A stretch of DNA of 30,652 nucleotides from a virus (lineage: Duplodnaviria > Heunggongvirae > Uroviricota > Caudoviricetes): positions 1 to 30,652 of IMG/VR virus record IMGVR_UViG_3300045988_047713; one strand, 5' to 3'. Made by a program: the position numbers and the translations under genes. Of the stretch, positions 1,340 to 29,424 are shown piece by piece (position 1 is the stretch's first letter; the number at the start of each line of letters is the position of its first letter). Under the pieces are notes generated by a model, which was given only the letters and a program-made list of their open reading frames with translations, was not told the DNA's origin and did no database searches.

Positions 1340-3001
1340 ATGAAAGCTCGTTATTATCAGACTGAAGCTATCAATAACGTATGTCAGGCATGGTCAAGCG
1401 GTGCTGACGACGTGATTCTTGTGCTTCCCACGGGGGCAGGAAAAACGTTCTGTATGTCTGAACTGGTAAAAACAAGAGACGGTGTAAAAGTCATCCAGGC
1501 ACACCGTAAAGAACTGGTTAGTCAAATCGCAATGGCTGTTGCTCGCCAGGGATTACCACACAGATTTATAGCGCAAAAAGATACTGTTAAGTTTGCAACT
1601 AATCAGCAGATGAAAACGCTTGGTTACAGTACCTATTCCCCCGGCGCTGACATCGTTATTACCAGTTCACAAACGTTAAGAACAAAACAGTACGAACGGT
1701 GGTACAACGATGTGTCTCTTGTATTCAGCGACGAAGCGCATCACCTGGTACGTGGCACACAGTGGGGAGACTGCCGGGAAAAATTCCCTAACGCTAAAGG
1801 TCTGGGTGTTACAGCTACACCGATCCGTGCTGACGGTAAAGGCCTGGGTCGTCATGCGTCAGGTTACGCAGATCAGATGATCATCGGTCCATCAATGCGT
1901 GAGTTAATCAGCCAACAACACCTGGCTGATTATCGCCTGATCATGGCTGAAACAGACCTGGAATTAACTGCAGAAATGATTTCCCATACTACGGGTGATT
2001 ACAAACCCTCTGCGTTAAAAAAAGCGATGGAAGATTCAAACATCGTTGGTGATACCGTCAGTACGTGGAAAACATATGCAGATGGTTTACTCACTGTTGT
2101 GTTTACGTGTGATGTGGATTCTGCTGAAGCACTGGCACAAGAATTTCGCGATGCGGGTATTCCAGCAGAGGCGATCAGCTCACGAAACAGCAATCAGGAA
2201 CGAGCGGATATCCTGGAACGTTTTGAACGACGTAAAACACTCGTGCTATGTAATAACGATTTATTCGGTGAAGGGTACGATTGCCCGGCAATGGAATGTG
2301 CTGTAATGGACCGTCCAACAGAATCTTACTCTTTGTTTGTACAACAGATGGGTCGTCCGTTGCGTTTCAAACCGGGTAAAAAAGCACTGATTATTGATAA
2401 AGTCGGTAATGTTCGTCGATTTCTGGCCCGTGGTTTTCCACTTCCCGATCAGCATTACAACTGGTCTTTAGACGACCGTGACCGTCGTTCATCAAACAGC
2501 AGTGGGAACAGTAACACAACATGTACAAACAAGGGTGATCCTGATAACGGTATTCCACCGTGTCTGAAGCCTTACCCATCTGGTCTACCGTGTTGCCCGT
2601 ATTGTGGTCATGTTCCTGAAAAAGCCGAACGCTCAGGCCCGGATCGTGTAGAAGGTAATTTGCGTGAACTGACACCTGAAGAACTGGAAGAATTACGCCG
2701 GGCAGTGGTAATAATCGACCGTGATCCTGTTGCGGTAAAAGAACAAATGTTGAACGCGGGTGCACCCCATGTTGCAGCTTACAGTGCAATGAAAAATATT
2801 CAGGCAATGAACGATGCACAGCGTAAGTTACGTAGCATGATTACCACATGGGCCGGTATTCAGCGTGACAAAGGTATACCCGTTGATGACGCTTACAAGA
2901 TGTTTTACAGGGTGTTTGGTGTTGATGTGCTCAGTGCTCAGGGATTACGTACTCGTGAAGCTAATGAACTCGCCGCAAGGGTTGCAAGTTCATTAATCTG
3001 A
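1340..3001 (+). CDS. superfamily-2 DNA helicase (DEAD/DEAH-type) with C-terminal Cys-rich zinc-ribbon-like segment
   Basis: 553 aa; N-terminal ARYYQ motif, Walker A LPTGAGKT, Walker B/DEAH-like FSDEAHH, Cys cluster CLKPYPSGLPCCPYCGH. Confidence 0.8.
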   Translation: MKARYYQTEAINNVCQAWSSGADDVILVLPTGAGKTFCMSELVKTRDGVKVIQAHRKELVSQIAMAVARQGLPHRFIAQKDTVKFATNQQMKTLGYSTYSPGADIVITSSQTLRTKQYERWYNDVSLVFSDEAHHLVRGTQWGDCREKFPNAKGLGVTATPIRADGKGLGRHASGYADQMIIGPSMRELISQQHLADYRLIMAETDLELTAEMISHTTGDYKPSALKKAMEDSNIVGDTVSTWKTYADGLLTVVFTCDVDSAEALAQEFRDAGIPAEAISSRNSNQERADILERFERRKTLVLCNNDLFGEGYDCPAMECAVMDRPTESYSLFVQQMGRPLRFKPGKKALIIDKVGNVRRFLARGFPLPDQHYNWSLDDRDRRSSNSSGNSNTTCTNKGDPDNGIPPCLKPYPSGLPCCPYCGHVPEKAERSGPDRVEGNLRELTPEELEELRRAVVIIDRDPVAVKEQMLNAGAPHVAAYSAMKNIQAMNDAQRKLRSMITTWAGIQRDKGIPVDDAYKMFYRVFGVDVLSAQGLRTREANELAARVASSLI

Positions 3002-6581: not shown

Positions 6582-6624
6582 TGTAAAATAATTCTTGACG
6601 AATTACAGATGTGTGCGCTATAGT
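6582..6624 (+). promoter_or_regulatory. conserved sigma70-type promoter, copy 3 (plus strand)
   Basis: UP element GTGTAAAATAATTC, -35 TTGACG (6595-6600), 18-bp spacer, -10 TATAGT (6619-6624); drives the operon 6656-8887. Confidence 0.6.
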
Positions 6625-8893: not shown

Positions 8894-8922
8894 AGCGGGG
8901 CTAACTACCCCGCTATCTTTAT
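8894..8922. terminator. bidirectional rho-independent terminator
   Basis: Hairpin AGCGGGG-CTAACTA-CCCCGCT (8894-8914), A-run upstream and T-rich run downstream, so it works on both strands; lies between convergent genes. Confidence 0.75.
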
Positions 8923-9737
8923 TGACCCATCATATCTTTATACATCATCAAAACAACATCATCCGGCATATTGTCTACATCACAATGTGGGTTATGCGAT
9001 AACGCATACAGTCTGATTTTCTCCTTCAAATCGCTGACATCGACTACAGGTGGTTCCACTCGTGCTACAGGTGGTTCCACTCGTGCTACAGGTGGTTCCA
9101 CTCGTGCTACAGGTGGTTCCACTCGTGCTACAGGTGGTTCCACTCGTGCTACAGGTGGTTCCACTCGTGCTACAGGTGGTTCACAAACCATCACGTTAAA
9201 CGGTGTACCGGTGCCTTCGTATTTTTCAAGCAAATCGACCATTACGTTTACACATTCCGGGATCCAACCCCGGCGCAAACCATTCTGAATCCAACTGTCA
9301 GTAATTGTGTGTTCGTTTAAATTTCTGCGTAACACGTATCTGGTACATTCAAAATTACCGCACATCGCCTCAAACCGTGTCCACACGTCGTGACCGTGAA
9401 CAGCTTCCAGGATCTGTGAATCAACATATCTGACACGTTGCCAGTAGTTATTAGCAAAACGCCTGTGTGGTAATTTCTGACGCAGTTCGGTAACCGGTAT
9501 TGTGCGTTTAAGAACAATGTTTTCGTCAGAATGTTGTACTGACAAGGGTGACAGTGTGAAGTCAGTAATCTCTTCAAGAATAATACTGATCGTTTCAATT
9601 TTAGGATGAAATCTACCGCTCAACCATTGGTTGTAACGACCAACAGTTACCTTAACACCTCGACGATTAAGGTATTCAACAGCATTTTGCACCCCGCCTT
9701 TTAAATCTATCAATTCGTCTAAAAGGTTCTTTTTCAT
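8919..9737 (-). CDS. hypothetical protein with N-terminal HTH-like segment and 7 tandem EPPVARV heptads
   Basis: 272 aa from ATG 9737 (AAGGTG RBS 7 nt upstream; the track start at 9773 is 12 codons further); internal perfect 21-bp nucleotide repeats; sits directly beside the operator array. Confidence 0.6.
   Translation of the reverse strand: MKKNLLDELIDLKGGVQNAVEYLNRRGVKVTVGRYNQWLSGRFHPKIETISIILEEITDFTLSPLSVQHSDENIVLKRTIPVTELRQKLPHRRFANNYWQRVRYVDSQILEAVHGHDVWTRFEAMCGNFECTRYVLRRNLNEHTITDSWIQNGLRRGWIPECVNVMVDLLEKYEGTGTPFNVMVCEPPVARVEPPVARVEPPVARVEPPVARVEPPVARVEPPVARVEPPVVDVSDLKEKIRLYALSHNPHCDVDNMPDDVVLMMYKDMMGQ
9044..9190. repeat. perfect tandem repeat, 21-bp unit CTACAGGTGGTTCCACTCGTG, about 6.7 copies, in-frame within a CDS
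   Basis: Read directly: identical units from 9044 to about 9184; encodes the EPPVARV heptads on the minus strand. Confidence 0.9.
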
Positions 9738-9780
9738 TATCACACCTTCTTTATTTAACCACGGATAAATCATAACTCGC

Positions 9781-9955
9781 GTTAGCAGCTAGTGCAAGAT
9801 GTGCTTTATATGTTAGTGCACTTACACCTAATACATATTGTGCTTTAACGGTTAGTGCAAGATGCACGTTGTGCATTAGCTGTTAGTGCACGTTGTGTAT
9901 CTATGTTGGTACAGTTAGTGCACGTTGTGTATTATATAGTGCACGTTATGCATTA
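9781..9955. promoter_or_regulatory. array of 5-7 palindromic operator/iteron-like sites (core TAGTGCACGTTGTGCATTA)
   Basis: Copies near 9790, 9812, 9861, 9885, 9917, 9938; each contains an inverted repeat TGCAC-N3-GTGCA; spacing about 25-35 bp. Confidence 0.6.
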
Positions 9956-9967
9956 AAGTTATACTTA

Positions 9968-10085
9968 ACATAGATTGCATCATGTTTATTTTTTAACCAA
10001 CCTTTCTCTATCTTATTCTTTTTATTACCTTTTTATAGATAACATAGAAAACATAGATAAATAGAAGAAGTAGTATAGAAAGATA
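9968..10085. repeat. AT-rich intergenic element, copy A of a ~105-110-bp duplicated sequence
   Basis: CATGTTTATTTTTTAACCAACCTTTCTCTATCTTATTCTTTTTATTACCTTTTTATAGA...ACATAGATAAATAGAAG is about 90 percent identical to 29201-29310. Confidence 0.8.
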
Positions 10086-10225
10086 GAGATAGTACATATA
10101 GTGTATTAGCTGTAAATAGAGCTAAAATAAAAGTCTGGGAGATACCTATTGTAATCTATGTTTTTATGCAAGTCTTTGAAATCATTGTGATTATTGGCTA
10201 CGTATTTATGTATGTGGTCGAAAAT

Positions 10226-10243
10226 TAGTGCATGTTGTGCATT
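10226..10243. promoter_or_regulatory. isolated operator copy (TTAGTGCATGTTGTGCATTA)
   Basis: Same palindromic core as the 9781-9955 array, about 100 bp upstream of TerS. Confidence 0.45.
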
Positions 10244-10348
10244 AACTGTAAACTTAATACTAACATTGTATTAGCTGTAAAACAGGGCGTGTAGACAACC
10301 CGTGGGTATCTGTGGGAAACTAATTTAAAATTTATGGGAGACAAATTT

Positions 10349-10984
10349 ATGAAAATTTCAGACCGGGCTAAAAGAGCTGCTCTGGAGTTAACAACCGATC
10401 AACTACGCTTCGCTAACCTGTGGTTAGATCGTGTCAATAACGGCTTCAGCAACGCTCAGTGCGTCTTACACGCTTATCCGGGGCATAAAGACCCTGACGC
10501 AGCTAAAGTCACCGCACACCGCCTCCTGTCGAATAGGAAGGTGTTGAACTATCTGGACGCGATGGGAAGTCATGCGCTTGAGTCTGTCGGGGAATCGTTA
10601 ACGAGTCGTGTCGAGTGGTGGAAACGAGCGGCAAGCACGGCTGAAGAATTACTGGAACCGTATTGTCAGCGCGTAATCGTCCCTGGTGAAGACGACACAG
10701 AAGCGAAACACCTGTGGGTGAACAGTACCGACGATATCCCCAGCCATCTTCAACAGTACGTAGTTTGCTACAAGCGTTACATGCTGGGCGGATACATTCT
10801 GGTGACGCGTGAATTGTTCGATCCGAAAACTCGTGCAAAAGCGTCTGAACAACTGGATAAAATCACCGGGAACAGTATCGACCGTGTGGAATTGTCTGGT
10901 GTGGTTGGTAACGTGGTTCAGAGTGTTCCTGAAGGTGCAACTATCGACGATATCGCGCAACTGTATCAGAAGGCGCTTAAATAG
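10349..10984 (+). CDS. terminase small subunit (TerS)
   Basis: 211 aa from ATG 10349 (GGGAGA RBS); N-terminus LTTDQLRFANLWLDRVNNGFSNAQCVLHAYPG...AHRLLSNRKVLNYL fits the small-terminase HTH pattern (LT.KQ.RF...A...AGYS...LL.N.KV). Confidence 0.65.
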   Translation: MKISDRAKRAALELTTDQLRFANLWLDRVNNGFSNAQCVLHAYPGHKDPDAAKVTAHRLLSNRKVLNYLDAMGSHALESVGESLTSRVEWWKRAASTAEELLEPYCQRVIVPGEDDTEAKHLWVNSTDDIPSHLQQYVVCYKRYMLGGYILVTRELFDPKTRAKASEQLDKITGNSIDRVELSGVVGNVVQSVPEGATIDDIAQLYQKALK

Positions 10985-10993
10985 GCGGTTGTT

Positions 10994-11028
10994 CCGGCTT
11001 AAATCGTGCCGGAAACCGTTTGCGTTTT
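10994..11028 (+). terminator. weak terminator-like hairpin downstream of TerS
   Basis: CCGGC-N9-GCCGG stem followed by a T-rich stretch (GCGTTTTCG); T-run is separated from the stem. Confidence 0.25.
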
Positions 11029-11098
11029 CGATAAACAAGGTTAGGTGGTGCAAGTGTACTGTTGAAGGTGTTAAGTTCGTCAGAGAGCGTTTTAGAAA

Positions 11099-11116
11099 GC
11101 CCGGAACTAACCGGGC
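11099..11116 (-). terminator. rho-independent terminator for the minus-strand rdgC operon
   Basis: Hairpin GCCCGG-AACTAA-CCGGGC; on the minus strand followed by TTTCTAAAA. Confidence 0.45.
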
Positions 11117-11178
11117 GTATGTTCATTATTCGTGATTATTACTACGTATCATCTGGTAGTTTTCAGCATCACTACGTT

Positions 11179-12093
11179 TCATCGTTTAGCCTCCCCACCC
11201 AAAGCAGTGATAAGTTGTTTGATCAGTGCCTGAAGTTCACCTGTCATCAGTACAAAATCAGCGTCAAATCGTGCCAGACTGTCTTCAAGGTCAATATCGT
11301 CGTTCTGGCACATCAGTTCGTCGCAGAATTTCACACGGTTTAACGTCATGCTGTCAGTTAGCGTAAACGTTACCCGCTGCTGCCAGTCCATCGCCAGCTT
11401 TGTAACGACTTTCCCGGCTTCAATATGCGTGGCTATTTCGTCACTGGTTAAATCCTGTTTTTTAACACGTGCAACACCGCCGTCAGTCAGGATCGCTTTC
11501 AGTTCCGCAGAATCACCCATTGTAAAACCTGTTGGCGCGTTTCCTGAACGTACCCACTCCGTTGTTGTCAGTTCAACAGGGTTTTCAGTTGTCAGTGGGA
11601 CTACAGGCAGACTACCCAGGGATTTACGCAACAGTGCTAATGCGTCTTCAGCCCGTTTAGCACTGGACGCATCAACCACGATCAACCTGTTAGTGATATC
11701 AATCCACAACTGTGTACGACTGTTTTTAACGAACGCTCGTGGTAACAGACTGTGTAACACTTCATCTTTCAGCGCGTCTTTCTCTGTTTTCTTCAGCTTA
11801 CGCGCCTGTTCAGCTTCCAGTTTGGCGATTCGCGCGTTCAGATGTTGTTTAATGACCGGACCCGGAATAATCTTTTCCTGTTTCTGGATGGTCAGCAGAT
11901 ATTGCCCGTTAGCCTGGTGAACCAGTGTATGATGTTGTTCAGTTGCCGGAACCCAACCAGTACGCGTCATATCCTGTGAACCGCACGGGGTAAATTGAAA
12001 CGCACACAGGCTGTCTTCCAGTGTTGGTAACTGGACCATTAATGCCATTGGGTTAGTCAGACGATAAATGATTGCGTTTTTAAAGAAGTTCAT
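11179..12093 (-). CDS. rdgC: recombination-associated protein RdgC homolog
   Basis: 304 aa; N-terminus [12 protein letters not shown] and overall length match bacterial RdgC (E. coli RdgC is about 303 aa, N-terminus MLWFKNLMVYRL as recalled); similarity judged from memory, not by search. Confidence 0.75.
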
Positions 12094-12290
12094 AGTTGTT
12101 TTCCTGTTATAACGTCAGTTAATGGTTTAAACGAATCATCGGTGATTGTTGAATTTAAATATTCGCAGACAGCTTTAACAATCCCAGCATGTGTCATTGG
12201 TTCATCTTTATATGACGACTCAAAACTAAACCCCGTGAATAGAATCTCACCACCATTATTAGTTACTGTTCCAAATCGTGTAATTTTCAT
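12090..12290 (-). CDS. hypothetical protein (66 aa)
   Basis: ORF with ATGA overlap to rdgC; same operon. Confidence 0.5.
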
Positions 12291-12292
12291 GA

Positions 12293-12487
12293 CTAGTCGA
12301 TATCCTGTGGATTGACTTTAACGGATGTTTGAATTGCTACAGAAGGTGAATAACCAATACAGGTAAACTCCACACATTCAGCTTCAACAATCAAACCTGT
12401 TTTAACAGCAGAGTTGATAGCCGTGTTTAATTCTGCTGTCAGACGTTTAATTTTATCCTGATGTTCTAATGCTTCAGACAGTTTCAT
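12293..12487 (-). CDS. hypothetical protein (64 aa)
   Basis: ATG at 12487 (MKLSEALEH...); the track start at 12496 is a TTG. Confidence 0.5.
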   Translation of the reverse strand: MKLSEALEHQDKIKRLTAELNTAINSAVKTGLIVEAECVEFTCIGYSPSVAIQTSVKVNPQDID

Positions 12488-12633
12488 GATAACCAATACC
12501 TCACTAAATTATTAGTTAGATTATCCAGCGCCAGAAAGAAATTGACAATGAATATGAGTCCTAACATTCCCACTAACCACGGTAATAGTTTAACGACCCA
12601 TAATGGTATTTTTGAAATCAGCCAGAAAATCAT
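12484..12633 (-). CDS. small membrane protein (49 aa)
   Basis: ATG 12633, hydrophobic MIFWLISKIPLWVVKLLPWLVGMLGLIFIV; ATGA coupling on both sides. Not in ORF track. Confidence 0.35.
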   Translation of the reverse strand: MIFWLISKIPLWVVKLLPWLVGMLGLIFIVNFFLALDNLTNNLVRYWLS

Positions 12634-12785
12634 TTCCTGTTCCTTCTTTTCTTCGCCTCGCGTCGGGCTTTTGCAATACCTGTTTTACGATGTGGTTGTT
12701 TACGGTCAGTAATAAGTCGTTGTGGTGGAATACCCCACAATGTGTTAGTGGAACTTAACAGTTTAATCGCGTAATCAAGAATCAT
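12630..12785 (-). CDS. small basic protein (51 aa)
   Basis: ATG 12785 with GGTGA RBS; C-terminal KARREAKKRRNRK. Not in ORF track. Confidence 0.3.
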   Translation of the reverse strand: MILDYAIKLLSSTNTLWGIPPQRLITDRKQPHRKTGIAKARREAKKRRNRK

Positions 12786-12892
12786 ACGTTCACCACTTTT
12801 AAATCAGGTGTCAGGCTACGATGGTCATGATGACCGTTCATGGTAAATGAGAAAGTGTAATCGCACTGTTCACCGTTGAACGTGAAGGGGAT

Positions 12893-13048
12893 TTAAAACC
12901 CTGTATCGTCAGTGATGCGAACTTTAACCGGGTATTCAGCTTGCGGATCGACCGCTACAACAGTACCGAACGGTTGAGATTTGCGACGTGCGAGAATTTC
13001 TAACAGTCGTGGACTGGTGATTTCTACGTGTTGACCAGTTTTAAACAT
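12893..13048 (-). CDS. small hypothetical protein (51 aa)
   Basis: Internal ATG 13048 with GGAG RBS; the track start at 13075 would lie at the predicted transcription start of promoter copy 4. Confidence 0.4.
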   Translation of the reverse strand: MFKTGQHVEITSPRLLEILARRKSQPFGTVVAVDPQAEYPVKVRITDDTGF

Positions 13049-13080
13049 GGTGATAACTCCAGTTGTTTTACACAAATTGA

Positions 13081-13124
13081 AGTCTATCTGATGATGTGTA
13101 AACCGTCAAGAATTATTTTAAATT
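13081..13124 (-). promoter_or_regulatory. conserved sigma70-type promoter, copy 4 (minus strand)
   Basis: -35 TTGACG (13109-13104), 17-bp spacer, -10 TAGACT (13086-13081), UP element TAAAATAATTC; drives the rdgC operon. Confidence 0.55.
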
Positions 13125-13299
13125 GTCCGTCACTGTCTGCAGCATAGCAAATGCCGTGACTGTATATTGTCGCAGTTCGTGTAATGCGTTGATAGTCTGA
13201 GCATTGGTTACGAACACGCAGGTCATACCCGGACTGTATAATCAGCCAGGTTGCAATGATGGCGAGTAATTTTAAAACGTATCTGAACATGTTCCACAC
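13084..13299 (-). CDS. small hydrophobic protein (71 aa), possible membrane/secreted
   Basis: AGGAG RBS upstream of ATG 13299; N-terminal hydrophobic LKLLAIIATWLIIQS. Confidence 0.5.
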   Translation of the reverse strand: MWNMFRYVLKLLAIIATWLIIQSGYDLRVRNQCSDYQRITRTATIYSHGICYAADSDGQFKIILDGLHIIR

Positions 13300-13351
13300 T
13301 CCTGTTTGATAGTTTCAGGGTAGTGTGGAACTGGTGAAGATGGTATAGGAT

Positions 13352-13750
13352 TTACGATAATTTAACAGTTAATCCGGCGTTGGTCAGAACGTTAGCGACA
13401 TCACGCACACCAGCTTCATATCCGTCTATAGGTGTTGCGGGTGATTTAACACAAATGCCAGCATGCTTTGGTAATTCAATTACCAACTGTTCCCGACTGG
13501 CTTTCCACATGTCCCACGCGCGATTCAAACGATCGCCTTCTTCCACGGTGTACTCGTCATCTTTCCTTAATTTTTCTAAGACGTTTTTTGGTGTTCCGTA
13601 TTTGTCTGAATAACACGCTTCAAACTGTTCACGACTCTTATCCACTTTTTCAACCCTCCACCCATATTTAGCACGATTCATAGCGGTCCGTTCATCATTC
13701 GTGGTGAACAGTACGCGCCCGGATTTATGACAAATGTTCCAAGTCGTCAT
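13352..13750 (-). CDS. hypothetical protein (132 aa)
   Basis: ORF track; no recognised motifs. Confidence 0.5.
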   Translation of the reverse strand: MTTWNICHKSGRVLFTTNDERTAMNRAKYGWRVEKVDKSREQFEACYSDKYGTPKNVLEKLRKDDEYTVEEGDRLNRAWDMWKASREQLVIELPKHAGICVKSPATPIDGYEAGVRDVANVLTNAGLTVKLS

Positions 13751-13802
13751 TTCGCTAATACACCAATAATGAAAATTAGCATGTAGAATAAAACATTACG
13801 GG

Positions 13803-13961
13803 TCATAATTCATAAACCTTAAAACTACCGCCTGAATAACGATGTTTATTACACAACTTACAACGGTGTTCCTGAGTGGCGTAATTACGTTCATCTCCGT
13901 GGATAGTACGATACAAATACCATTCGTGTTTGCAGAATAATCGTTTGAGAAATATCTTCAT
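13803..13961 (-). CDS. small Cys/His-containing protein (52 aa), zinc-finger-like
   Basis: ATG 13961 with AAGGTG RBS; CKHEW...HRCKLCNKH. Not in ORF track. Confidence 0.35.
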   Translation of the reverse strand: MKIFLKRLFCKHEWYLYRTIHGDERNYATQEHRCKLCNKHRYSGGSFKVYEL

Positions 13962-13968
13962 AGTTCAA

Positions 13969-14286
13969 TCACCTTTTTAACACATCACGACAATCACACA
14001 ATAGACGAACATATGTTAATTTACGTTCATCTAACAACGCCGCCATGTTGTTAGCCTCATTTGCGAGGAATTCTAGCGCGTCTTTTTCAGAACAAAAACA
14101 GTGATAAGAGTTTTTGAGTAATACACGACCTTTATCGCTGTAACGACATTTAACACGCCAACCTTTTGGTGTTTTATTTATAATCTCATATTGTTCAATA
14201 TAATGATGGACATCAAGAGCTTTATATTTATCACTACAAGTAGGTTTGCGGATAAACCACATGTTTTGGTTATCAGATACATTCAT
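13969..14286 (-). CDS. hypothetical protein (105 aa)
   Basis: Internal ATG at 14286 chosen because it overlaps the upstream stop; the track ORF extends to 14343. Confidence 0.45.
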   Translation of the reverse strand: MNVSDNQNMWFIRKPTCSDKYKALDVHHYIEQYEIINKTPKGWRVKCRYSDKGRVLLKNSYHCFCSEKDALEFLANEANNMAALLDERKLTYVRLLCDCRDVLKR

Positions 14287-14489
14287 TATTTGACTCCATG
14301 ACCTGGTGCAAAACAAACTGTATTGTTTTCTTTGAAAACCCAACCAGCTTTTTTAGCCTGTTTCAGACAATCACGAAAGTTTTTACCACCGAACGAAGTA
14401 ACCTCAGTTGCGAAAAATGGACCTTTAGGTTTTTTACATACGGCGCAATCACAGTAAAGGTCCATTGAATAACCACTAACAACCATCAA
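14286..14489 (-). CDS. small Cys-rich protein (67 aa)
   Basis: CDCAVCKK ... VCFAPGH; ATGA overlap with the upstream gene. Confidence 0.5.
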   Translation of the reverse strand: MMVVSGYSMDLYCDCAVCKKPKGPFFATEVTSFGGKNFRDCLKQAKKAGWVFKENNTVCFAPGHGVK

Positions 14490-14704
14490 TAACCCCTTTT
14501 AATCTTCCCCAATGCTTGTTGCACAATCTGCCAGGACGATAACATGAATAATTGCGCGTATTGTCCCAGTGCTAAATTTCGTGGTTTATCCTGGTAAGCG
14601 TAAATGGTCGCAATGTCATCAGCTTCCAGACGGATCCGCCACGGTGTCAGAGTTGGTTTATCACCCATGTTCGACGCGCTCCAGTAGTTCACGAATGTTT
14701 TCAA
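14486..14704 (-). CDS. hypothetical protein (72 aa; possible internal start at 14668)
   Basis: ORF track; overlaps the next ORF by 44 nt unless the internal Met is used. Confidence 0.45.
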   Translation of the reverse strand: MKTFVNYWSASNMGDKPTLTPWRIRLEADDIATIYAYQDKPRNLALGQYAQLFMLSSWQIVQQALGKIKRGY

Positions 14705-14984: not shown

Positions 14985-15214
14985 ACCTGTAACCCTCTTG
15001 TTTTTTGTTTAGTGACAAGATATCTCTTCAACCCGTCGCAACTAATTTCACAATCCCCGCAGGAACCACCATCCAACCAGATGATGCATAGTGTGTGATT
15101 TCGTGGGGTGAGTTACGCTTTATACTCACCGTAGCGCCTGACAATCAGCGGTATCTTCAGCCGGACAATTCCGGGTTACTACATACTTGGTCAGGTATCT
15201 TGTCTATGACAACA

Positions 15215-15258
15215 ACTATACAGATACATGAGCAATCTGTCAAGAATTATTTTAAACC
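15215..15258 (-). promoter_or_regulatory. conserved sigma70-type promoter, copy 5 (minus strand)
   Basis: -35 TTGACA (15243-15238), 17-bp spacer, -10 TATAGT (15220-15215), UP element; about 220-nt leader to ATG 14984. Confidence 0.55.
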
Positions 15259-15319
15259 TCTGTTACCACCTGTCACCCGTGGTAAACTGTACAGAACAGT
15301 TACAAACGGACCGATAATC

Positions 15320-17083
15320 ATGAATAAGTTTACTGGAAATATTCATAATTACCCGCGTTGGCGGGATGCCTACGCAAATGACGAACGTATCTGGCGAAAA
15401 GGTCAGCCACGACCGGATTATAAACAGTGTTACATTGACCGCATTAACCTGTTAAATCGTATGCGCACGGATCGGGCAATTGTCCCGGTGCTGAAAAAGT
15501 ATTACGAAACAAACCCGGTAGCGTTTATCCTCGACTGGGCGTTTACTTACGACCCGCGTAACGTCGGTACTGAGTACACGCCTAACATGCCTTTCTGCCT
15601 TTTCGAACGTCAGATCGACATGGTTCAGTTTGTTTATGAAGCGCTTGAAGACAAAGAGAAAGGACTTTGGGAAAAATCGCGAGACTATGGCGCGACCTGG
15701 GTAGCCTGTGGTTTGTCCGTATGGGCGTGGCTGTATCGTCCTGGTTCTTCAGTTGGCTGGGGATCACGTAAAGAACAGCTTGTTGATAAACTGGGCGACC
15801 CGGATAGTATTTTTGAAAAGATTCGCCAGATTATCCGCGCATTACCACCGGAATTACGCCCGGTCGGTCTGCGTGAAAAAGACCATCTGGTTTACATGAA
15901 ATGTATCAACCCAGAAAACGGTGCAACAATTACTGGTGAAGCTGGCGATAACATCGGTCGTGGTGGTCGTAAATCTGTCTATTTTCTCGACGAGGCAGCA
16001 CACGTAGATCGTCCTGAACTGATCGAAGCGTCGTTGTCAGCTAACACCAACGTTCGTATCGACATCAGTTCAGTTAACGGTGTTGGTAACGTTTTTTATC
16101 GTAATCGTAAAGCTGGTCTGGAATGGGAACCAGGTAAGAAATTACCCCGTGGTAAATTGCGTGTCATGGTTCTGGACTGGCGTGATCACCCGGCTAAAGA
16201 TGACGAATGGTATAAGCGAGAAAAACAATCGTTCGCTGAAAAAGGTTTACAGCATATTTTCGCACAGGAAGTTGACCGCGATTATGCCGCTGCTGTTCAG
16301 GGCGTGTTGATTAAAGCTGAATGGGTACGCGCTGCTTTTGACGCGTTCCGTGACACAGAATGGCGCAAAGCTAACGGACTACTTACACCAACAGGTCAGC
16401 GTATCGCCGGACAGGATGCCGCAGACGGTGGTGAAGACGCAAGCGCACTGGTAATTGCTCACGGTGTATTCCTGACACATCTGCAACTTGACCACAGGGG
16501 CGCTGAACTGGCTGCACCAGGAATGTTGACGATGGCTAATATGCTGGGTGTTGATGAATACTGGTACGAAGTTAACGGTGTTGGTACAGGCGTTAAAGTA
16601 GCGGCAAATGACCGGAAAGATACTCTACGCTTCCGTGTGCGCCCGTGGTTACCGAACGGAAAAGTGGTGGATCCAGGTGGTGATATTATCGGTGGTACGA
16701 AACCTGGCGATAAAGACCGTAAATCAAACAAAGATTATTTCTCAAATTATAAAGCACAGGCATCGTGGGCGTTACGCCTGCGATGTCAGCGAATTTATAA
16801 ATGGTATGTGGAAGGTCAACCACAGGATCCAGACGAAATTATTCTGATTGATCCATCACTGGAAAATGCACAACGGTTAGAGGCTGAGTTAAGTCAGCCA
16901 ACATATACCAGTAACGGTGCCGGGAAGATTGTGATCGACAAAAAACCAAATGGAAGTAAGTCGCCAAACTTTTTCGATGCTGCGGTTATTGCACTATCAC
17001 CAAAACGCACTGAATTTGTCGAAGAACCATTTACTGGTGGTGTGAATCCTGTTGGTACGCCTGATTACGGTGACATTTTTTAA
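15320..17083 (+). CDS. terminase large subunit (TerL)
   Basis: 587 aa from ATG 15320; ERQIDMV...GLWEKSRDYGATWVACGLSVWAWLY (Q-motif plus deviant Walker A), Walker B VYFLDEAAH, nuclease-domain acidic cluster GQDAADGGEDASALVIAHG. The in-frame extension to 15095 is rejected because it would encode across promoter copy 5. Confidence 0.8.
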   Translation: MNKFTGNIHNYPRWRDAYANDERIWRKGQPRPDYKQCYIDRINLLNRMRTDRAIVPVLKKYYETNPVAFILDWAFTYDPRNVGTEYTPNMPFCLFERQIDMVQFVYEALEDKEKGLWEKSRDYGATWVACGLSVWAWLYRPGSSVGWGSRKEQLVDKLGDPDSIFEKIRQIIRALPPELRPVGLREKDHLVYMKCINPENGATITGEAGDNIGRGGRKSVYFLDEAAHVDRPELIEASLSANTNVRIDISSVNGVGNVFYRNRKAGLEWEPGKKLPRGKLRVMVLDWRDHPAKDDEWYKREKQSFAEKGLQHIFAQEVDRDYAAAVQGVLIKAEWVRAAFDAFRDTEWRKANGLLTPTGQRIAGQDAADGGEDASALVIAHGVFLTHLQLDHRGAELAAPGMLTMANMLGVDEYWYEVNGVGTGVKVAANDRKDTLRFRVRPWLPNGKVVDPGGDIIGGTKPGDKDRKSNKDYFSNYKAQASWALRLRCQRIYKWYVEGQPQDPDEIILIDPSLENAQRLEAELSQPTYTSNGAGKIVIDKKPNGSKSPNFFDAAVIALSPKRTEFVEEPFTGGVNPVGTPDYGDIF

Positions 17084-21232: not shown

Positions 21233-21276
21233 AGCATAATCGCACGTTTGCAATCCGTCAAGAATTATTTTAACAC
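21233..21276 (-). promoter_or_regulatory. conserved sigma70-type promoter, copy 7 (minus strand)
   Basis: -35 TTGACG (21261-21256), 17-bp spacer, -10 TATGCT (21238-21233), UP element. Confidence 0.55.
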
Positions 21277-23455: not shown

Positions 23456-23499
23456 AGGTTACACGTCCTTGTGTAATCCGTCAAGAATTATTTTAAATT
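23456..23499 (-). promoter_or_regulatory. conserved sigma70-type promoter, copy 8 (minus strand)
   Basis: -35 TTGACG (23484-23479), 17-bp spacer, -10 TAACCT (23461-23456), UP element. Confidence 0.5.
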
Positions 23500-25223: not shown

Positions 25224-25268
25224 ATGTTAGTGTGATCGCTTGCAATGTGTCAAGAATTATTTTAAACT
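25224..25268 (-). promoter_or_regulatory. conserved sigma70-type promoter, copy 9 (minus strand); possible divergent partner for the gene at 25297
   Basis: -35 TTGACA (25253-25248), 18-bp spacer, -10 TAACAT (25229-25224). Plus strand: TTGCAA (25240-25245), 17 bp, TAAACT (25263-25268), about 30 nt upstream of ATG 25297. Confidence 0.5.
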
Positions 25269-29055: not shown

Positions 29056-29099
29056 AAGATATACCACAGTTTGCAATCCGTCAAGAATTATTTTAAAGA
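29056..29099 (-). promoter_or_regulatory. conserved sigma70-type promoter, copy 10 (minus strand)
   Basis: -35 TTGACG (29084-29079), 17-bp spacer, -10 TATCTT (29061-29056), UP element. Confidence 0.55.
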
Positions 29100-29101
29100 T
29101 A

Positions 29102-29188
29102 CAGCTAATACAGAACGTGTACTAACTGTACATGGTTTTACATAGGTTTCATGATTTTGAGTTGCAGCTAATACACGTTCTGTATTAG
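29102..29188. promoter_or_regulatory. two palindromic operator-like sites (CTAATACA-N5-TGTATTAG family)
   Basis: 29102-29128 (CAGCTAATACAGAACGTGTACTAA) and 29167-29188 (GCTAATACACGTTCTGTATTAG, perfect 8-bp arms); architecture related to the TAGTGCACGTTGTGCATTA sites at 9781-9955. Confidence 0.5.
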
Positions 29189-29200
29189 TAGATCATAAAT

Positions 29201-29310
29201 TCATAGATTTCGTCATGTTTATTTTTTAACCAACCCTTCTCTATCTTATTCTTTTTATTACCTTTTTATAGAAAACATAATAAACATAGATAAATAGAAG
29301 AGTAGTATAA
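29201..29310. repeat. AT-rich intergenic element, copy B of the duplicated sequence
   Basis: About 90 percent identical to 9968-10085 with two small indels. Confidence 0.8.
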
Positions 29311-29382: not shown

Positions 29383-29424
29383 CGTAAAATAATTCTTGAC
29401 GGATTACACCGACACAACTACCCT
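29383..29424 (+). promoter_or_regulatory. conserved sigma70-type promoter, copy 11 (plus strand)
   Basis: UP element, -35 TTGACG (29396-29401), 17-bp spacer, -10 TACCCT (29419-29424). Confidence 0.5.

Follow-up and report, generated by a model that had tools for sequence, protein, structure and literature searches.

What would a virulent phage gain from encoding its own RdgC, a protein known from Escherichia coli as a modulator of RecA? Binding of the E. coli protein to DNA is non-specific, and RecA strand exchange, the RecA ATPase, and the cleavage of LexA are all inhibited by it (PMC2965237; PMC11077077). The question is raised by a stretch of 30,652 nucleotides (nt) of tailed-phage DNA (Caudoviricetes; IMG/VR record IMGVR_UViG_3300045988_047713, positions 1 to 30,652), which is referred to at its full length as the window. 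An rdgC gene was found on its minus strand at 11179..12093, where it encodes a full-length RdgC-family DNA-binding protein of 304 amino acids (aa) and is the last intact gene of its transcription unit. By the sequence comparisons described below, the product is almost certainly a functional member of the RdgC family. The identification is correct but ordinary; the gene is already annotated in related phages. What the protein would do during infection is a matter of graded probabilities, which were weighed against four alternative explanations.

Family membership and functional residues

A preliminary description of the locus had proposed a host-like RdgC homologue of 304 aa on the grounds of length and N-terminus, and this was confirmed by every family resource that follows. 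The product matched the Pfam RdgC family (PF04381) with 385.7 bits (E 1.9e-115; cutoff 25), and its residues 3-301 were aligned to positions 2-298 of the 298 in the model, hence from end to end. It also matched PHROG 724 (E 8.6e-128), the E. coli RdgC structure PDB 2OWL over residues 2-304 (E 8e-127), and the Pseudomonas aeruginosa RdgC 2OWY (E 2e-65). The search against RdgC that had been proposed along with the description returned significant similarity, with a sequence identity of 65.6% to E. coli RdgC (302 columns) and of 41% to the Pseudomonas protein, and the N-terminus matches that of E. coli RdgC (MLWFKNLMVYRL). Among the NCBIfam models, the equivalog NF001462 ('recombination-associated protein RdgC') was passed with 416.5 bits (cutoff 330) and the subfamily model NF001464 with 330.9 bits (cutoff 227). 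The best-scoring model was the equivalog NF001460, for which the score of 469.3 bits was below the cutoff of 501. This shortfall is consistent with a neighbor-joining (NJ) tree in which the chromosomal Enterobacterales cluster does not include the phage clade.

The residues on which the activity of the E. coli protein depends have been defined by mutagenesis. Four basic residues at the fingertip (R97, K98, K100, and K101) are required if the ring is to be loaded onto circular DNA (Briggs et al., 2010; PMC2965237), while R118 and F120 are gate residues and Q212, E218, H222, and K227 belong to the horseshoe interface (PMC2965237). All ten were identical in the window protein, where they are numbered R98, K99, K101, K102, R119, F121, Q213, E219, H223, and K228, and they were nearly invariant among 121 members of the phage clade. 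A broader comparison was based on host-invariant columns, defined as those in which 95% or more of 77 Enterobacterales RdgCs agree. There were 149 such columns, and 116 of them (78%) hold the same residue in 95% or more of the phage clade. In the phages, just six host-invariant positions were fixed differently, mostly by conservative replacements (W3F, R14N, E71Q, K87R, A142S, and I207A), and a neo-functionalization of the phage protein was rejected on this basis.

The coding sequences point in the same direction. When seven phage rdgC genes were compared in 21 pairs, the ratio of nonsynonymous to synonymous substitution rates (dN/dS) was 0.10-0.22 throughout, at dS values that reached 0.78, which indicates that the phage RdgC is under sustained purifying selection. 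Taken together with the conservation of residues, this selection gives no sign of an altered core function.

The names given to the gene elsewhere suggest a different activity. In related phages, it is labeled 'RdgC exonuclease', 'recombination-associated protein', or 'exonuclease recombination-associated protein', and a label of 'putative exonuclease' or 'RdgC exonuclease' is found in Pfam, PHROG, and GenBank. An exonuclease function is favored by these annotation labels alone, and Moore et al. reportedly found in 2003 that purified E. coli RdgC has no nuclease activity. In the papers on the family that are cited here, RdgC is described solely as a RecA-modulating DNA-binding ring and nuclease activity is unmentioned (PMC2965237; PMC11077077). 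The label looks historical, and the idea that the window protein acts as an exonuclease is scarcely credible.

Lineage and proposed role

The genomes closest to window positions 10000-14500 in a megablast search were Nonanavirus/Sashavirus siphophages of E. coli and Salmonella. The identity was 95% for Sashavirus BDX09P1, 93-95% for AVIO78A, PDP46, PJ16, and KarinMuster_Bas82, and 88% for Solent and Sergei. By this similarity, the source is a virulent siphophage of the Nonanavirus/Sashavirus type and of the E. coli/Salmonella type, and no lysogeny functions were present in the annotation of its relative PJ16, as covered for the first 50 of 57.8 kb.

When one genome per species was scanned, 80 bacterial rdgC loci were recovered, almost all from Enterobacterales, which were 60-66% identical to the phage protein and had a median identity of 78.5% among themselves. 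In the NJ tree, which was rooted on P. aeruginosa and calculated without bootstrap, so that its topology is indicative only, the Nonanavirus clade grouped with the RdgCs of the lambdoid 'Flyfo siphovirus', of 'Pseudomonas phage 15b', and of the P1-like RCS47, as well as with second rdgC copies in Serratia and in a metagenome-assembled genome. This group was at the base of the Enterobacterales cluster and outside Escherichia or Salmonella. The phage rdgC therefore looks like an old phage lineage and not like a fresh capture from a host. A recent capture from the present host was considered and rejected, given the equidistance of 60-66% from the 80 Enterobacterales-type loci together with the basal branching.

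Two bacterial records in the scan stood apart in another respect. Contigs assigned to Vagococcus sp. WN89Y and Pseudomonas lundensis I31 carry typical Enterobacterales RdgC genes, and their products were placed in the tree with those of Kosakonia and Serratia, which suggests that the two assemblies are contaminated or mislabeled.

The phage clade is large, with upwards of 120 protein clusters (78-96% identity), many of them with longest contigs of 55-61 kb, and RdgC homologues were detected by tblastn in 504 of 50,697 GenBank phage records (~1%). The carriers included Vibrio phages (ICP1 among them) and phages of Pseudomonas, Klebsiella, and Proteus, as well as P1-like phages.

The preliminary description had suggested that a phage copy could tune host recombination or protect replicating phage DNA, which is a sensible deduction from the biochemistry of E. 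coli RdgC. A role in restraining host RecA is favored by the known biochemistry of RdgC, by the conserved residues, and by a module in the relative PJ16, where a DUF2800 PD-(D/E)XK nuclease and an Enc34-type single-stranded DNA (ssDNA)-binding protein adjoin the DNA polymerase. The repeated promoter of the sigma-70 type, with its strong -35 and the A/T-rich stretch that precedes it, would drive the leftward run of small genes that includes rdgC, and rdgC would be expressed early in infection. As expected from homology, the protein would form a ring-shaped homodimer, which would load on double-stranded DNA through its basic finger and without sequence specificity. A raised level of RdgC in the infected cell, the likeliest purpose of the gene, would lead to DNA being coated, and host RecA would be hindered in strand exchange and in the LexA cleavage of the SOS response. 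Host recombination and SOS would thereby be kept from the replicating phage DNA, and replication and packaging would proceed undisturbed. For the joint role, that is, early expression, ring-dimer loading, and damping of RecA strand exchange and SOS, the odds appear even.

Several points weigh against this role. The terS-terL island, which lies between the small and large terminase genes, had no rdgC-sized gene in phages 9NA and Sasha, so the gene is accessory and dispensable for this phage type. The RdgC-family gene hrdC of P1 was non-essential in a CRISPR interference (CRISPRi) screen (PMC10695390), and beyond that screen, no experimental study of a phage RdgC was found in the literature searched. 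The host already makes its own RdgC, which puts the benefit of an extra copy in question. In Neisseria, RdgC has the contrary effect and favors recombination-dependent pilin variation (PMC2965237), and the direction of its effect on recombination is thus uncertain. Finally, early expression is assumed from the type of promoter only.

The absence of the gene from 9NA and Sasha and the dispensability of P1 hrdC would also suit a nearly neutral passenger, acquired from a host and making no contribution to phage fitness, as would the highly mosaic character of the island. A passenger is nevertheless unlikely: the dN/dS values of 0.10-0.22 at dS up to 0.78 point to sustained selection, all functional residues were kept across more than 120 sequence clusters, and the position of the clade in the NJ tree is that of an old lineage and not of a recent capture.

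Support of the replication fork is a somewhat better candidate. RdgC would in this case stabilize stalled or collapsed phage forks, prevent the RecFOR-mediated loading of RecA at gaps, and so support fast replication. In E. coli, rdgC is required in priA strains, in which PriA-dependent restart is missing, and it counters the loading of RecA by RecFOR (PMC2965237); the phage supplies a helicase, a primase, and nucleases of its own, and the residues and fold are conserved as in host RdgC. This explanation overlaps with the damping of RecA, as the effect would still be exerted by limiting RecA. In addition, rdgC is located in the accessory island and outside the replication module, and the islands of 9NA and Sasha do without it. 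As a separate account of the gene, fork support was judged to be rather improbable.

RdgC homologues are present in a few lambdoid phages (PMC12315714), and for some of them a role like that of lambda RexA has been suggested, in which DNA binding would serve the exclusion of other phages or a regulatory switch. For the window protein, such a role is very unlikely. The protein has 65.6% identity to true RdgC, with every tested residue of the finger and of the ring interfaces retained, and no RexB-like partner was identified, the adjacent small open reading frames (ORFs) being without Pfam or PADLOC matches. When RdgC and six neighboring small ORFs were compared with the PADLOC defense models, no match was obtained at E <= 0.01. 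The PJ16 annotation, over the portion stated above, leaves no obvious place for a lysis-lysogeny switch.

The damping of RecA can also be put in a stronger form, which is tentative and clearly less probable than the joint role: the phage RdgC may be a dedicated early inhibitor of host RecA, whose coating of DNA would block SOS and RecA-dependent processes, with mixed dimers formed with host RdgC and with the product of the neighboring ORF D as a co-factor. Mixed dimers would be possible because all ring-interface residues are conserved. The processes blocked, if this is true, might include the induction of resident prophages, RecA-triggered immunity, or the branching of concatemers before headful packaging. 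It would also be, by the literature searched, the first function for a gene family found in ~1% of sequenced phage records, whose copies span temperate phages (P1-like and lambdoid), ICP1, and the Nonanavirus group. The window copy is near to the characterized E. coli RdgC, and its phage group includes the K-12-compatible Bas82 of the BASEL collection, which together would make it well suited to studying what phages gain from a modulator of RecA.

Transcription unit and neighboring ORFs

In the relatives, an island of small genes transcribed leftward is found between the small and large terminase genes. In the window, rdgC and the small ORFs next to it are within the corresponding island, which is bounded by terS (10334..10984, plus strand) and terL (15095..17083, plus strand). 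All genes of the unit are on the minus strand and are transcribed from high to low coordinates. The preliminary description had placed rdgC at the head of an operon, which the strand contradicts, as rdgC is the 3'-most gene.

A sigma-70-type promoter copy was identified at 13081..13119 (minus strand), composed of an A/T-rich upstream stretch (AAAATAATTC), a -35 hexamer TTGACG (13109-13104), a 17-nt spacer, and a -10 hexamer TAGACT (13086-13081). Its motif (AAAATAATTCTTGAC) had 10 matches with at most two mismatches in the window, where 0.14 were expected. In the promoter-like copies, a -10-like hexamer follows 17-18 nt after the -35, most clearly at 6590, 13114, 15248, 21266, 29089, and 1235. 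Ten near-identical sites (the motif plus GATTRCA) occur in both orientations and mark the starts of gene blocks that alternate in direction; the promoter-like sites are located at 1226-1303, 6585-6599, 13105-13119, 15239-15253, 21257-21271, 23480-23494, 25249-25263, 29080-29094, and 29386-29400. The copy at 13119..13081 was conserved in six relatives (PJ16, BDX09P1, Bas82, AVIO78A, SP069, and Solent), and its function as a promoter is predicted from this pattern only.

The preliminary description had the unit transcribed from promoter copy 4. The copy is indeed patterned, conserved, and the fourth along the window, but it is internal to a longer leftward run that begins at the copy near 15248. 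Read-through from upstream is likely, since no minus-strand terminator was found by the scan between the copies near 15248 and at 13119..13081. The promoter is also located within the 3' end of an upstream ORF of 71 aa (13084..13299, minus strand; phrog_38795), which has a hydrophobic N-terminus. The C-terminal codons of this ORF encode the A/T-rich stretch, the -35, and the -10 as well, and both the protein and the promoter were conserved in the relatives.

Between the promoter and rdgC, the five small ORFs that had been reported were recovered, joined by ATGA overlaps or by gaps of a few bases. Overlaps of start and stop in the form ATGA were observed for B/C, C/D, E/rdgC, and rdgC/remnant. 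Two of the small ORFs had been called membrane or basic, and this held for the 49-aa ORF, which is hydrophobic, and for a 51-aa ORF with a basic tail.

The first of the five, ORF A (12893..13048, minus strand), has 51 aa in the window and represents the N-terminal part of a conserved gene of 88 aa. It is cut at codon 52 by an in-frame TAA (12895-12893), where six aligned relatives have CAA. The other 36 codons of the gene (12892..12785) have kept the reading frame and run into ORF B with an ATGA overlap. The apparent gap of 108 nt is hence the rest of the 88-aa gene, a form that was found in all 14 relatives compared. The TAA reflects either a genuine nonsense mutation or an error in the sequence. 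ORF B (12630..12785, minus strand; 51 aa) has a basic C-terminal tail (KARREAKKRRNRK), to which its weak PHROG matches were confined, and homologues at the same position were present in 12 of the 14 relatives.

ORF C (12484..12633, minus strand; 49 aa) has ATGA overlaps at both ends, and its hydrophobic product is probably a membrane peptide. It had no tblastn match in GenBank phages, and a single homologue of 58% identity was found at the same relative position in the viral contig L100, the only such locus among the 14 relatives. ORF E (12090..12290, minus strand; 66 aa), of which the stop overlaps the start of rdgC, was found in none of the 14 relatives. It shared 59% identity with a hypothetical protein of Klebsiella phage KP13-16 and 41-43% identity with proteins of Klebsiella, Raoultella, and Stenotrophomonas phages with genomes of ~250 kb. 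Its AlphaFold2 (AF2) model, predicted from the single sequence, was poor, with a predicted local distance difference test (pLDDT) score of 61, and was judged unusable.

ORF D (12293..12487, minus strand; phrog_26258) encodes 64 aa from an ATG that overlaps the stop of ORF C, and its family was directly upstream of rdgC in 10 of the 14 relatives. An AF2 model from an alignment of 10 sequences (pLDDT 84) consists of one long helix plus a beta-hairpin. Foldseek searches with this model against PDB and BFVD gave no match at E <= 0.001, and the best match was an uncharacterized protein of Escherichia phage Halfdan (E 0.06). Weak homologues with 37-39% identity were located directly after a Sak4-like annealing protein in Pseudomonas Septimatrevirus phages (PSA-KC1, 2501-2698) and between queE and queC in Seuratvirus phages (Hafnia phage yong3, 2501-2701). 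A recombination partnership suggested by the Sak4-like neighbor was considered and rejected, as the similarity had an E of only 3e-3 and queuosine genes are found alongside in Seuratvirus. The PHROG label 'radical SAM domain-containing protein' was set aside as misleading; it looks like annotation carry-over, probably because the Seuratvirus homologues are located between queE and queC.

The small ORFs had no match in Pfam, NCBIfam, or PADLOC, and apart from the label of ORF D, their PHROGs were families without a function. Across the window and its 14 relatives, a stable gene frame was observed, composed of the 71-aa ORF, A, B, a variable slot, rdgC, a second variable slot, the 111-aa gene, and the terminator. 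The ORFs between B and rdgC were swapped, absent, or replaced among the relatives, and in three of them (Bas82, L096, and L097) rdgC directly follows ORF B. The small ORFs had also been proposed as partners of RdgC. This was not supported, given that the neighbors vary across the 14 relatives and that the D family occurs next to unrelated genes as well, and ORF D is at most a weak candidate for an RdgC co-factor.

Downstream of rdgC, the unit contains just a remnant ORF and a hairpin. The remnant (11126..11182, minus strand; 18 aa) overlaps the stop of rdgC and resembles the N-terminus of the 85-aa Solent_006. When window 11094-11182 is set against AVIO78A 1464-1836, it is seen to lack the 111-aa gene that most relatives have 3' of rdgC, along with the two or three small genes that separate the terminator from terS. 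The terminator-like hairpin (11094..11116, minus strand; stem-loop 11116..11099) has the form GCCCGG-UUAGUU-CCGGGC followed by UUUCU, with a folding energy of -13.3 kcal/mol and a z of -1.9. It failed the T-run rule of the scan and is a weak match to the consensus. Window positions 11096-11132 match AVIO78A 1471-1507, and a rho-independent terminator, to which the hairpin is homologous, is annotated at AVIO78A 1464-1491.

Other features of the window were observed outside this unit. Just upstream of terS, clusters of ~26-nt TAGTGCACGTTGTGCATTAGCTGT-like repeats and inverted repeats are located at 9793-10281, and a second set is found at 29100-29301. Each set adjoins one copy of a 100-nt direct repeat (9969-10068 and 29202-29301), and the two copies are 94% identical. 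These repeat arrays could be regulatory, serve as an origin, or be related to packaging. At 9023-9211, a perfect tandem repeat of 21 nt (CTACAGGTGGTTCCACTCGTG) in ~7 copies is part of a coding sequence and specifies a 7-residue peptide repeat; the ORF that contains it is at 9773..8919 on the minus strand and encodes 284 aa (phrog_25538). A helicase of the SNF2/ResIII type with 553 aa is encoded at 1340-3001 (plus strand) without an intein, while its PJ16 orthologue (44677-47355; 892 aa), which is 97% identical, includes a Hint and LAGLIDADG intein in the P-loop after LVLPTG.

Comparison with known systems

The closest characterized protein is E. coli RdgC (2OWL), with which the window protein shares its length (304 compared with 303 aa), an alignment from end to end, and identical residues at the ten tested positions. 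The two differ in context, as the window copy is a gene of a virulent phage, located in an accessory island under a phage promoter. The closest loci are those of the annotated RdgCs of Nonanavirus/Sashavirus phages (AVIO78A_005, PJ16_006, Bas82_0099, Solent_007, and the 'RdgC exonuclease' of SP069), which are orthologues between terS and terL with 85-96% protein identity. In contrast to these loci, the window contains ORFs C and E, has a nonsense codon in ORF A, and is without the 111-aa gene.

A further likeness, noted already in the annotation of Solent, is to HrdC of P1. The RdgCs of P1 and P1-like phages (e.g., RCS47) are phage-borne, comprise ~300 aa, and are 58% identical to the window protein. 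In contrast, they belong to temperate plasmid-prophages, their gene adjoins a dmt methyltransferase gene, and they form a separate branch of the tree. Lambda RexA is more remote. It is a distant structural relative of RdgC and, like it, a dimeric, non-specific DNA binder, in this case also phage-encoded (PMC11077077). No sequence similarity between RexA and the window protein was detected, however, nor did the latter have a match in PADLOC. RexA acts jointly with RexB and belongs to a prophage; the window protein is a true RdgC and belongs to a lytic phage.

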